22,654 bases of DNA from an uncultured Candidatus Bathyarchaeia archaeon (GCA_964450845.1 CAYVGZ010000017.1:1-22654), one strand, 5' to 3'; counted from the first letter of the stretch, positions 5,103 to 8,518 are shown. Notes: generated from the letters alone by a model not told the origin. A program made the numbers and translations.

Positions 5103-6638
5103 ATGGCGGAAAGAGTGTTTTCAAATTATAAGAAACTCATGGAAAAAGTTAAGCACTTGGCAATTCTGCTGTCAGCTGAAGCCATTGTCCATTGGGATAT
5201 GGAAACAATGATGCCTCCAAAGGCAATAAGATTGCGGAGTCAGCAACTAGAATTGCTTAGCCGTATTGAACATAAGATGAGCACAGACCCAGAAATAGGA
5301 ACTTTATTGGAAGAGATTATGCGGCAATCGATGTATGATAAGCTGGATTATGTTCAGAAGAGAAACGTATACTTAATAAAGAAACAATATGATGAACAGA
5401 CGAAGCTTCCTGAAGAACTTGTTGCAGAAACTGCAAAACAACAGGCCATAACCGTAGATGTTTGGAAAAAAGCCAAGGCAGCAAAAAATTTCTCGATGTT
5501 CAAACCTGAATTGGAAAAGCTTGTTGAATTAAGGAAAAAGGCTGCAGAAATTTTGATGGAAGTTAAGGAGACCGCGACACCATACGATGCGTTAGTAGAC
5601 ATTTTTGAGCCGAAAATGACAGCCAAAACAATCACCAAAGTTTTTGACGAATTAAGAGAAGGCTTGGTTTCGCTGCTTAGGAAGTGTGAAGCCTCCAAAA
5701 AACAACCAGACATAAGCATTCTGAAAGGTGAAGTTCCAATAGACATACAACGCAAGATTTCCAAAGCACTTGCAGAATTTGTCGGATATAATGTAGAGTC
5801 GAAAGAGGCTGGTGGCAGAATCGACGAAACGGAACATCCCTTCACAACTGGTTATTATGATGATGTACGAATAACAACACACTATTATGAAGATTACTTT
5901 GCATCTTCACTGTTTTCAGTACTGCACGAAGCTGGACATGCCATCTATGAGCAAAATCTAAAAAAGGATTGGATGTATCAACCAGTAGGCTCAAGCTGTT
6001 CCTCGGGGTTTCATGAATCGCAAGCTCGGTTCGTGGAAAACATTATTGGACGTTCTCGTGAATTCTGGGCTCATTTTCTACCAAAACTGAGAGAAGTTAC
6101 AGGCAATATTCTTTCAGACGTAGACTTAGACAAGTTTGTCCATGCAGTCAACCAAGTTAAGCCTTCCAAGATTCGCGTTGAGGCAGATGAAGTTACATAT
6201 TGTCTTCATATAATTGTAAGGTTCAATATTGAGCGAGATTTATTCGCTGACAAAATAATGGTGAGGGAGCTCCCAGAAATATGGAACCAAAGTTACAAGG
6301 ACTATCTTGGTGTGCATATTGAGAACGATTCTGAAGGCGTAATGCAAGACACTCATTGGGCTAGCGGCTTATATGGCTATTTCCCAAGCTACGCATTAGG
6401 CAACATCTACAGTGGACAAATCCTCGCCACAATGGAAAAAGACTTACCAAACTGGAGAAAACAAATCGAAAAAGGAAACTTCAGTTCTGTGAAAAATTGG
6501 CTAGTCAAAAGCGTTCACAACTACGGAAACTTGTATGATCCACCAGAATTGATCAGAAACATCGCAGGAAAAGAGCTGAGCGTCAAACCATACTTAAACT
6601 ATCTTAACGGAAAATATTCGACGCTTTACGGTTTCTAA
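5103..6638 (+). CDS. Carboxypeptidase M32 (Taq/Pfu type)
   Basis: HPF, DVRITT, HEAGH (HExxH), HESQ, IRVEADE, GVMQDTHW, GYFPSYALG motifs. Confidence 0.95.
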   Translation: MAERVFSNYKKLMEKVKHLAILLSAEAIVHWDMETMMPPKAIRLRSQQLELLSRIEHKMSTDPEIGTLLEEIMRQSMYDKLDYVQKRNVYLIKKQYDEQTKLPEELVAETAKQQAITVDVWKKAKAAKNFSMFKPELEKLVELRKKAAEILMEVKETATPYDALVDIFEPKMTAKTITKVFDELREGLVSLLRKCEASKKQPDISILKGEVPIDIQRKISKALAEFVGYNVESKEAGGRIDETEHPFTTGYYDDVRITTHYYEDYFASSLFSVLHEAGHAIYEQNLKKDWMYQPVGSSCSSGFHESQARFVENIIGRSREFWAHFLPKLREVTGNILSDVDLDKFVHAVNQVKPSKIRVEADEVTYCLHIIVRFNIERDLFADKIMVRELPEIWNQSYKDYLGVHIENDSEGVMQDTHWASGLYGYFPSYALGNIYSGQILATMEKDLPNWRKQIEKGNFSSVKNWLVKSVHNYGNLYDPPELIRNIAGKELSVKPYLNYLNGKYSTLYGF

Positions 6639-6832
6639 ATCTCTCCTTTTTTCCTCATTCGTTCATAAATTTTGAAAACTATTTTTGCCAAAAAACCGCC
6701 AATTATAAGAGAAAAACCTGCCCAACCAATTATTGCATTATAGTAGTTAGCGCCATACAAAAATAGAACCGCACCCATCACAGTTACACATACGCCTAAT
6801 ATTTCTTTCCACGACATCCAAACAGGCTCCAA
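6635..6832 (-). CDS. Small membrane protein with two predicted TM helices
   Basis: Two hydrophobic stretches around a GANYYN loop and a basic C-terminus; convergent 4-nt overlap with the M32 gene; TATATATAG upstream. Start may be ATG 6817. Confidence 0.65.
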   Translation of the reverse strand: MEPVWMSWKEILGVCVTVMGAVLFLYGANYYNAIIGWAGFSLIIGGFLAKIVFKIYERMRKKGEI

Positions 6833-6924
6833 ATGTTAAGTCTAAACTTTTTAGCCCCCTATATATAGACTTGCCGATGGAGATGATAGTGCTTATTAGC
6901 GGAATAGGCAACACATAGTGCTAC

Positions 6925-7026
6925 AATATGCAGGAAAACATGATCTTCAGAATTGCATCCGACAGTTATTGGACCAGATTCATTTCCTTTTCTGCATATT
7001 ATTGTTGATTCCGACAGTTTTATATA
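6925..7026 (+). promoter_or_regulatory. fae-hps upstream region: inverted repeat, direct repeat and TATA box
   Basis: AATATGCAG (6925-6933) / CTGCATATT (6992-7000); TCCGACAGTT at 6958 and 7010; TTTATATA at 7019-7026, about 35 nt before the ATG at 7061. Confidence 0.55.
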
Positions 7027-7060
7027 CAACCTTAACCATTGTTGCTTGTGGCGATTCAAA

Positions 7061-8518
7061 ATGTCGGAAGCCAATATCAGGAAGCCGGCGACGAGGGAAG
7101 AATTTATCAAAATATTGACGGATGCTGCTAAAAAAGAAGTCGAAACTCGTGGTGTTCTGAGGAGGAGACCGACGAAACCGACAATCTCAGGAACGGCTAA
7201 ATTTTTGAACGTACATAGGGACACTCTTTATACGTGGCTTAAAGAGTTTGATGTCGATTTTGACAAGATTTCTGGGGGAATATCGACAAATTTATTGTCG
7301 GAAACTGTCGAAGCGCCCCGAAAATATGCGTATCTGATTGGCGAGGCTCTCGTAGGAGAAGGTAATGAGGTTGCACATATCGACCTTTTGATAGGCGACA
7401 AAGAGGGACCTGTCGGTGAGGCTTTCGCTTCTGGCATTTCTAATCTTTCTGTTGGACATACTCCATTGCTGGCGGTTATAAGACCTAATCTTCCCCCCAA
7501 ACCTCATACGTTGCTTGTGCCAAAAGTCACTATCAAAAACCTTGAAGATGTAGGGAAAATTTTCGGCCCTACACAAGCTGCTGTGGCGAAGGCTGTTGCA
7601 GACTCTGTGGAGGAAGAAGTCATTCCTAAGGATAAAGTGGACGACTGGGTCATCGTGTGCAGTGTCTTTGTGCATCCGCAAGCGAATGACCCGCGCAAAA
7701 TATACCATTACAACTACAGCGCAACCAAGTTAGCTTTGAAAAGAGCTATAGCGAAGTATCCGACGCTGGAAAAAATCCTCTATGATAAGGACAGAGCCAA
7801 ACATCCGATAATGGGATTCAGAGTGCCACGCCTATGGAGACCGCCATATCTGCAAATCTCGCTTGACATTCCAGACCTAGAAAGGACAAAGAAAATCATC
7901 GCTCAAATTCCCAAAAGCGACAGAATAATACTGGAGGCTGGAACACCTCTCATTAAAAGGTATGGAACAAAGGTGATAAGTGACTTAAAAGAAGTTGCCA
8001 AAGAAGTATTTTTCGTTGCTGATTTGAAAACTTTGGATGTTGGAAAGGTTGAAGTAGATTTAGCCTATGATGAAACTGCCGACGCAGTAGTTGCAGCTGG
8101 ACTGGCGCCTGCTGAAACGCTTGATTCTTTCATCCATGAAGCAAAAAGACTTGGAATATATGCTGTAGTTGATATGTTAAACGTTGATGACCCCATTAAG
8201 AAGCTGAACCCACTAAAGGAATTTCCAGACGTGGTCATCTTACACAGAGGAATTGACGAAGAAACCGGAAGAGCAATAGGATTAGAGCAGATCCAACAAA
8301 TGCGACAAATTTTTAAGGATAAGCGATTTTTGATTGCGGTGGCAGGTGGAATAGTGCCAGAAACAGCCAAAGAAGCCTTAGAAAAAGGTGCCGACATAAT
8401 TATTGTCGGAAGGTATGTGACACAATCTAAAGACATTGAACGAGCCGTAAGAGACTTCCTTGAACTGACACCTGCAATGCGAGAAGACGTGGACTTGTTT
8501 AGAGTTCACGTAGAATAA
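7061..8518 (+). CDS. fae-hps: Bifunctional formaldehyde-activating enzyme / 3-hexulose-6-phosphate synthase with an extra N-terminal HTH domain
   Basis: Fae motifs GEALVGEGNEVAHIDLLIG and FGPTQAAVAKAV; HPS motifs EAGTPLI, DLKTLD, HRGID, VAGGI, IVGR; about 88 extra N-terminal residues containing an HTH pattern. Start set at ATG 7061, downstream of the TATA box. Confidence 0.92.
   Translation: MSEANIRKPATREEFIKILTDAAKKEVETRGVLRRRPTKPTISGTAKFLNVHRDTLYTWLKEFDVDFDKISGGISTNLLSETVEAPRKYAYLIGEALVGEGNEVAHIDLLIGDKEGPVGEAFASGISNLSVGHTPLLAVIRPNLPPKPHTLLVPKVTIKNLEDVGKIFGPTQAAVAKAVADSVEEEVIPKDKVDDWVIVCSVFVHPQANDPRKIYHYNYSATKLALKRAIAKYPTLEKILYDKDRAKHPIMGFRVPRLWRPPYLQISLDIPDLERTKKIIAQIPKSDRIILEAGTPLIKRYGTKVISDLKEVAKEVFFVADLKTLDVGKVEVDLAYDETADAVVAAGLAPAETLDSFIHEAKRLGIYAVVDMLNVDDPIKKLNPLKEFPDVVILHRGIDEETGRAIGLEQIQQMRQIFKDKRFLIAVAGGIVPETAKEALEKGADIIIVGRYVTQSKDIERAVRDFLELTPAMREDVDLFRVHVE

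Follow-up and report, generated by a model that had tools for sequence, protein, structure and literature searches.

Why should an enzyme of central pentose supply and formaldehyde metabolism begin with a DNA-binding domain (DBD)? The question is raised by a gene at positions 7061–8518 of a 22,654-nucleotide stretch of DNA (here the window) from an uncultured Candidatus Bathyarchaeia archaeon, which encodes a predicted helix-turn-helix (HTH) followed by formaldehyde-activating enzyme (Fae) and hexulose-6-phosphate synthase (Hps) domains. The genome to which the window belongs, as contig C17, spans 1.64 Mb and is 93% complete (G000). In anoxic sediments, few archaea are more abundant than Bathyarchaeia; to our knowledge, none is in pure culture and their gene regulation is almost wholly uncharted. 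The answer that we favor, and consider probable, is that the HTH-headed Fae-Hps binds an array of CCGACA boxes at its own gene and represses its own transcription. Autoregulation of fae-hps is well supported by sequence comparison, and a specific operator in its own promoter is indicated by the presence of the boxes at 48 of 48 HTH-type loci, their uniqueness in the genome and their covariation with the type of DBD. We infer that the head binds the boxes directly, that it represses and that the enzyme is oligomeric.

The gene and the elements around its start are as follows.

6959–6964, plus strand: distal CCGACA box, which precedes the proximal box by 52 bp.
7011–7016, plus strand: proximal CCGACA box, at the position of the transcription factor B recognition element (BRE) and abutting the TATA box.
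7019–7026, plus strand: TATA box TTTATATA, about 35–42 nt upstream of the ATG.
7061–8518, plus strand: HTH-Fae-Hps coding sequence, an open reading frame (ORF) of 485 amino acids plus stop.
7062–7067, minus strand: inverted box (TGTCGG on the plus strand), overlapping the start codon and Ser2.

A search of the 22.6-kb window for TCCGACAGTT that tolerated one mismatch gave five matches, of which four fell at 6958–7312. All 45 related loci shared the same upstream design, with CCGACA before TATA at the BRE position, a second CCGACA further up and an ATGTCGG start. Motifs were counted in the region from −200 to +7 of the start at 48 HTH-type loci (the window, the 45 related loci, G007 and G090) and, for comparison, at 18 loci whose Fae-Hps carries a ribbon-helix-helix (RHH) head and 16 loci with no extension.

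CGACA-N2-5-TWWATA: HTH-type 48/48, RHH-type 0/18, no extension 0/16.
Three or more CCGACA: HTH-type 39/48, RHH-type 0/18, no extension 0/16.
ATGTCGG or GTGTCGG start: HTH-type 45/48, RHH-type 0/18, no extension 0/16.

The pattern CCGACA-N2-4-TTWWATA had a single occurrence in the 1.64-Mb genome, and clusters of the box (at least three CCGACA in 130 bp, or at least four in 400 bp) were found genome-wide at this locus only; shuffled genomes gave 0–2 such clusters. A generic promoter element was rejected as an explanation of the CCGACA-TATA arrangement on the grounds of that single occurrence and of its absence from the 34 fae-hps promoters without an HTH. The spacing between the distal and proximal boxes peaked at 52–53 bp, with minor groups at 42–43, about 32 and 63 bp, corresponding to 5, 4, 3 and 6 helical turns, and the proximal box lay 50–56 bp from the start. 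Such helical phasing points to boxes that are bound at the same time, on the same side of the DNA duplex.

That box type varies together with head type is the most compelling reason to think that the boxes are read by the head. When 150 Bathyarchaeia genomes were searched, full-length matches came from the family of the window and three others; elsewhere, the match began at residue 80–90, often within open frames of 450–490 amino acids. Fae-Hps had no extension in 16 genomes. A 58-amino-acid RHH head was present in 18 genomes of neighboring Bathyarchaeia lineages, with Pfam scores above the cutoff in two members (RHH_1, 23.6 versus 20.5; ParD, 21.3 versus 21), and at least 80 public protein clusters of approximately 448 amino acids are of this type. 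Two genomes carried an HTH_7/HTH_23-like head (f11; HTH_7 26.5, above 23.8; HTH_23 26.0, above 24.6). The word GTGACAC occurred in 17 of the 18 RHH-type loci, usually as a palindrome before TTAAATA plus a distal copy, and in 0/48 HTH-type and 0/16 no-extension loci, and both HTH_7-type loci (2/2) had two to three TGCGGCA/TGCCGCA boxes around TATA. The no-extension loci contained none of the CCGACA array, GTGACAC or TGCGGCA motifs. In one member of the window's own family (L064, G127:C5), the HTH has been lost through a natural in-frame deletion, and Fae follows immediately after the first 12 residues; the boxes of this allele are decayed, with CCGGCA before TATA and a start that reads ATGTCAGG.

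A tree of the Fae-Hps core placed all HTH-type genes in one clade (Shimodaira-Hasegawa-like approximate likelihood ratio test support 100), with the G127 deletion allele and a paralog without boxes nested inside. RHH-type genes were nearest to the HTH type, in a joint clade with support of 95, and the HTH_7 type stood separately, among the no-extension forms. This placement implies that the enzyme acquired or swapped heads on at least two occasions, and that the repeated word in the promoter changed to match on each of them. No conserved upstream neighbor was found in the RHH-type or no-extension loci, and promoter orthology across the types could therefore not be shown. In the RHH-type loci (L065–L082), the palindrome sits about 12–16 bp upstream of TATA and does not abut it, so the sign or mode of regulation may differ from that of the HTH type.

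The proposed reader of the boxes lies within the N-terminal extension.

7061–7336, plus strand: N-terminal extension, residues 1–92, delimited by structure models and alignment.
7181–7264, plus strand: HTH core, residues 41–68, with invariant T41, S43, G44, A46, H52, R53, D54, T55, Y57, W59, E62, V65 and F67 and the codon-position pattern given below.

Two AlphaFold2 runs, one on the whole protein and one on residues 1–92 with 39 diverse sequences, returned the same architecture: a long helix at 12–34, HTH helices at 42–48 and 53–63, a helix at 67–82 and then a disordered, poorly conserved linker. A preliminary description of this locus had assigned the peptide T41–V65, at nt 7181–7255, to a Fis-type HTH. 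The coordinates were correct, and the segment did model as an HTH, its two helices having predicted local distance difference test scores of 84–88 in both runs. By sequence, the Fis assignment was not borne out, since the HTH_8 profile (PF02954, Fis family) was not among the Pfam matches at E up to 1 for residues 1–90. All Pfam matches on the head were to HTH families, the best being subthreshold matches to HTH_29, HTH_23, HTH_28 and HTH_17. Structural alignment with VIA-align gave Z scores of 4.5–6.3, and the neighbors were almost all DNA-binding HTH domains (sigma factor, TetR, NtrC1 and AraC); the NtrC1 DBD (PDB: 4L5E) scored Z 5.3 with a root-mean-square deviation of 2.5 over 44 residues, and the TetR, sigma and AraC HTH domains scored equally, all below Z 8. 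These values are consistent with an HTH and too weak for a family to be named. A phmmer search of 1.84 billion cluster representatives matched only HTH-Fae(-Hps) fragments and unrelated multi-HTH repeat proteins, and no stand-alone homolog of the head was found there. The only relatives outside Fae were proteins with 4–8 tandem simple-HTH repeats (P0160, P0163–P0167 and P0170), which have strong matches to HTH_23, HTH_17 and HTH_28. Models and matches are consistent with a simple three-helix HTH whose family is not nameable from the matches.

In the mechanism that we propose, the HTH would recognize CCGACA at phased sites: a distal box, a box at the BRE position before TATA, an inverted box on the start codon and several boxes within the first 250 bases of the coding sequence. 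Fae and Hps are oligomeric, which would make the particle multivalent, and one particle with several HTHs could occupy several boxes together. The Fae structures matched comprise 10 chains in two entries, consistent with a pentamer, and we take Fae in 1Y5Y to be pentameric; Hps belongs to a dimeric fold class. The bound particle would cover BRE/TATA and the transcription start. With one box in place of the BRE and another over the start region, binding should hinder recruitment of transcription factor B, TATA-binding protein and polymerase, and the outcome would be negative autoregulation.

Several observations weigh against this reading. The HTH is tied to CCGACA by correlation, among genomes whose relatedness keeps them from being independent samples. 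At 6 bp the box is short, and the genome contains 385 isolated copies of it, fewer than composition predicts. Pfam scores for the HTH are below the gathering thresholds (best, HTH_29, 21.8 bits versus a cutoff of 28.1), a Foldseek search of the head against the PDB returned nothing at E ≤ 0.001, and the fold-search matches, of which the best reached Z 6.3, are all below Z 8 and not significant. The box-less paralog in the tree (L087, G102:C94) is a diverged HTH-Fae-Hps with an HTH-like head in which the HRDTLY motif is changed, and it has no upstream CCGACA boxes. Some homologs have an in-frame internal Met directly upstream of Fae, several members of the same 90% cluster are annotated by the NCBI at 401–408 amino acids with an internal Met or Leu start (P0123, P0127, P0129 and P0132; records from metagenome-assembled genomes, MAGs), and a short isoform without the HTH may exist in the species with an internal Met.

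The best-surviving alternative takes up the first of these points. A separate, trans-encoded factor of the same clade might bind CCGACA, with the fused HTH serving for protein contact, oligomer assembly or unspecific tethering to the nucleoid; as all HTH-type genes belong to a single clade, a factor specific to that clade would track the boxes just as closely, and the subthreshold Pfam scores and correlative link also speak for it. We nevertheless consider it unlikely. Three unseen factors would be needed, each swapped in step with one of three fused DBDs, and the boxes are decayed where the HTH is deleted (G127). The conserved neighbors of the HTH-type loci (an M32 carboxypeptidase, a small divergent membrane ORF, S6e and aIF2-gamma) include no regulator gene, and the sole genomic cluster of boxes lies at this gene, which is typical of an autoregulator.

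How far would control by the HTH-headed enzyme extend? The preliminary description envisaged an HTH-bearing enzyme that sits on repeated operators and regulates one-carbon and pentose genes. Its first half stood, in that the extension appears to be made, models as an HTH and is accompanied by repeated boxes at its own gene. The wider regulon was unsupported: no CCGACA was present in the promoters of phi (G000:C4), dapA-fae (G000:C8) or the two glyA copies (C47 and C78), and the only genomic cluster is that at fae-hps. A lone TGTCG at −100 of the glyA copy on C78 is within chance, and looser CGACA-TATA matches elsewhere in the genome formed no coherent gene set. On present evidence, the predicted regulon is the fae-hps gene itself.

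The same distribution bears on the idea that the HTH has no transcriptional role and tethers a formaldehyde-capturing enzyme to the chromosome, for local DNA protection or at a site of storage or partition. In favor of the idea, formaldehyde is a DNA-damaging agent and a multivalent particle could settle on the chromosome; boxes confined to a single locus would, however, give negligible genome-wide protection, and their location in the gene's own promoter, overlapping BRE/TATA and the start codon, suits regulation. We rate tethering as highly improbable.

Further boxes lie inside the coding region.

7178–7183, plus strand: intragenic CCGACA box, encoding Pro40-Thr41 (at Pro37-Thr38 in most orthologs).
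7252–7256, minus strand: intragenic TGTCG box in codons Val65-Asp66, at the conserved position +191; Val65 is GTC in 36/39.
7284–7288, plus strand: linker-region box CGACA, conserved in position.
7296–7301, minus strand: linker-region box TGTCGG, conserved in position.
7306–7310, minus strand: linker-region box TGTCG, conserved in position.

Across loci, boxes occupied fixed positions relative to the ATG (+1, +109/+118, +191, +223, +235 and +245), and their density was 18/kb in the first 270 nt versus 2.9/kb in the remaining gene. Among 292 columns with a conserved residue, the three most constrained in codon choice were Ser2 (TCG, 37/37), Val65 (GTC, 36/39) and Pro37 (CCG, 37/39), all of them in boxes; Thr38 (ACA), likewise within a box, ranked sixth. 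The p-values of this comparison are inflated by relatedness, and the ranking is a fair internal control because one tree applies to all columns. If the favored reading is true, the domain that binds the boxes carries some of them in its own codons.

Boxes within the transcript could instead act in RNA: CCGACA and UGUCGG words toward the 5′ end of the mRNA would pair and thereby govern the start of translation, and the HTH would be incidental. Both orientations do occur within the transcript, at +1, +118, +191, +223, +235 and +245, and the minimum-free-energy fold contains a local CGACAA...UUGUCG hairpin. The proximal and distal boxes, which are the two best conserved, are upstream of TATA and hence outside the transcript, the RNA fold of 7049–7330 was no more stable than shuffled sequences (z −0.27), and spacing by helical turns points to duplex DNA; we give control by RNA pairing as slight a chance as tethering.

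Autoregulation by the HTH-headed protein presupposes that the extension is made. Residues 1–92 as sole query retrieved 409 proteins, nearly all of them Fae+HPS proteins of 484–485 amino acids with 57–89% identity over the extension, which is thus no chance open frame, and a survey of the architecture, which the preliminary description had suggested, found it in 45 species genomes, all 45 of them Bathyarchaeia MAGs. Pairwise differences per codon position were computed from a codon alignment of 39 full-length orthologs. The HTH segment (residues 41–68) had 0.14/0.05/0.49 differences at codon positions 1/2/3 and the Fae domain 0.15/0.06/0.57, matching patterns that point to purifying selection of equal strength at the protein level. 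Across the 39 species, 16 residues of the extension were invariant, and its reading frame was open in every ortholog. Every locus had a TATA box approximately 40 nt upstream of the same ATG, and most had a Shine-Dalgarno-like GGTGA or GAGGT 6–12 nt before it. In the window, no in-frame ATG occurs between 7061 and the Fae domain. The codon-level evidence indicates that the extension is translated and under selection. Least credible of all is that the extension lies outside the working enzyme, translation starting internally (at TTG Leu79 here and Met ~85 in relatives) and the upstream frame being kept only as regulatory DNA, since the conserved boxes that this DNA does hold and the 401–408-amino-acid products given by NCBI pipelines for several members are set against a substitution pattern dominated by third positions as in Fae, the 16 invariant residues, a frame open throughout, the lack of an in-frame ATG before Fae in the window and a TATA box and Shine-Dalgarno-like sequence whose placement across loci fits the ATG at 7061.

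Is the enzyme itself intact? Its two domains were delimited as follows.

7337–7813, plus strand: Fae domain, residues 93–251 (Pfam PF08714, E 1.6e-69; aligns with 1Y5Y).
7844–8455, plus strand: Hps domain, residues 262–465 (Pfam PF00215, E 3e-32; aligns with 9LJ9, 3F4W and 3AJX).

The PF08714 match (233 bits versus a cutoff of 27) is full length, covering profile positions 1–159 of 159. Residue 7 of the M. extorquens Fae chain (PDB: 1Y5Y) aligns with query residue 92, which places about 85–90 residues before the canonical Fae start, in agreement with the approximately 88 residues first estimated. The GEALVG-x-G-NEVAH(I/V)DL segment with the active-site His is identical to 1Y5Y, and the active-site H106 is invariant in 34 homologs. 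For the C-terminal part, PF00215 (OMPdecase/HPS) scored 112.7 bits versus a cutoff of 27, and among solved relatives the HPS chains 9LJ9 (1.4e-29), 3F4W and 3AJX outranked KGPDC and OMPDC. The motifs D321-L-K323-T-L-D326, LQISLD (D269) and LEAGTP (E292) align with 9LJ9 and are all invariant in the homolog alignment. The motifs reported earlier as intact are indeed kept: EVAHID (within NEVAHIDL), D-x-K-x2-D (D321/K323/D326) and HRGID (residues 395–399) all align with solved Fae and HPS chains.

As had been stated before, the window holds no phi (hxlB) gene; one is present elsewhere in the genome (G000:C4:13759-14331, 177 bits versus a cutoff of 160), and the ribulose-monophosphate route is thus complete. 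Hps together with the separately encoded Phi would convert fructose-6-phosphate to ribulose-5-phosphate and formaldehyde, and Fae would capture the released formaldehyde on tetrahydromethanopterin. Intact catalytic domains and a DNA-binding domain are joined in a single polypeptide, as in trigger enzymes. More speculatively, substrate or product occupancy may modulate DNA binding and so make the protein a true trigger enzyme. Unlike autoregulation, the sensing of formaldehyde, tetrahydromethanopterin or hexulose-6-phosphate load proposed in the preliminary description is not well supported. An extended scheme would have a ligand-gated trigger enzyme whose head has been exchanged (RHH, HTH or HTH_7-like), each with a matching operator, and whose multivalent particle wraps approximately 350 bp of its own gene (−105 to +250) on phased boxes; as a whole, we regard this scheme as possible but doubtful. 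If it is true, formaldehyde and pentose-phosphate status would be coupled directly to enzyme synthesis with no separate regulator.

That the architecture was previously undescribed, as the preliminary description supposed, is borne out by full-text literature searches and a paper on archaeal fusions, in which no published account of a DBD-fused Fae-Hps was found. Public records name these proteins plainly "Fae/Hps," and the head is missing from part of the NCBI records through the choice of an internal start. Canonical Fae-Hps, as in Methanosarcina barkeri and the no-extension Bathyarchaeia, is collinear with the window's protein over Fae and Hps and keeps the catalytic motifs, but starts 4–20 residues before GEALVG and lacks the promoter boxes; the window's Fae-Hps is 60–73% identical to the no-extension Bathyarchaeia forms.

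Among known systems, the HTH- and RHH-headed Fae-Hps would extend the design of PutA, NadR, BirA and RbkR to a new enzyme and new heads. In PutA (Escherichia coli and Salmonella), an N-terminal RHH is joined to proline dehydrogenase and pyrroline-5-carboxylate (P5C) dehydrogenase; the protein attaches to several operators that control its own gene and represses its own synthesis, the switch being flavin reduction and membrane binding. It resembles HTH-Fae-Hps as a bifunctional enzyme with a small N-terminal DBD and multiple operators at its own gene, and its DBD is of the same fold class as that of the RHH-type Fae-Hps in sister Bathyarchaeia lineages. PutA is, however, bacterial, has unrelated enzyme domains and an RHH rather than an HTH, and has no homology to the window's protein. 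NadR (HTH, nicotinamide mononucleotide adenylyltransferase and ribosylnicotinamide kinase) has the same HTH-enzyme-enzyme layout, and BirA joins a winged HTH to biotin ligase; in both, repression is coupled to catalytic state, with corepressor logic established experimentally. Both are bacterial, and their domains are unrelated to Fae-Hps. HxlR of Bacillus subtilis is a formaldehyde-responsive activator of the hps-phi operon and, like the proposed HTH-Fae-Hps, a transcriptional control of a formaldehyde-linked hexulose-phosphate synthase gene, but it is a separate, unfused protein of the MarR/DUF24 type, and the operon that it controls includes phi. The archaeal riboflavin kinase/regulator RbkR has an N-terminal HTH-type domain fused to an enzyme, with lineage-variable operators predicted by comparative genomics, its own gene in the regulon and DNA binding modulated by the enzyme's substrate and product (PMC5397151). 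Like HTH-Fae-Hps, it is an archaeal HTH-enzyme fusion with its own gene as a target; it differs in its winged HTH, its kinase domain and a regulon that spans a whole pathway (PMC5397151), whereas the boxes of HTH-Fae-Hps lie at its own gene only.

A central enzyme of pentose supply and formaldehyde metabolism thus appears to carry its own regulator, and a regulator-operator pair that can be read from sequence alone is unusual for Bathyarchaeia. The three heads, each with its own operator, and the natural deletion with decayed operators form a natural experiment on the origin, swap and loss of such a fusion. The predicted autoregulator is directly testable in vitro, for which the protein and a 120-bp DNA fragment suffice.

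Minor observations concern the neighborhood and the other Fae and Hps domains. Divergently from fae-hps runs a predicted membrane ORF of 65 amino acids (window 6635–6832, minus strand), which is retained beside fae-hps at 40 of the 45 HTH-type loci and at the locus with the HTH deletion, but was not seen upstream of RHH-type or no-extension loci; a TATA-like TATATATA of its own lies near 6860–6868. A second Fae domain in the same genome forms the C-terminal part of a fusion to a DapA/DHDPS-like aldolase (492 amino acids; G000:C8, locus L002, 1489–2967, minus strand), the dapA-fae gene whose promoter is without CCGACA boxes, and many Bathyarchaeia genomes have similar Fae matches in open frames of approximately 495–510 amino acids. 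In Bathyarchaeia lineages without Fae-Hps, Hps-like domains occur in open frames of approximately 720–900 amino acids (for example, G026:C68, G015:C16 and G047:C10), which look like a different, larger fusion.

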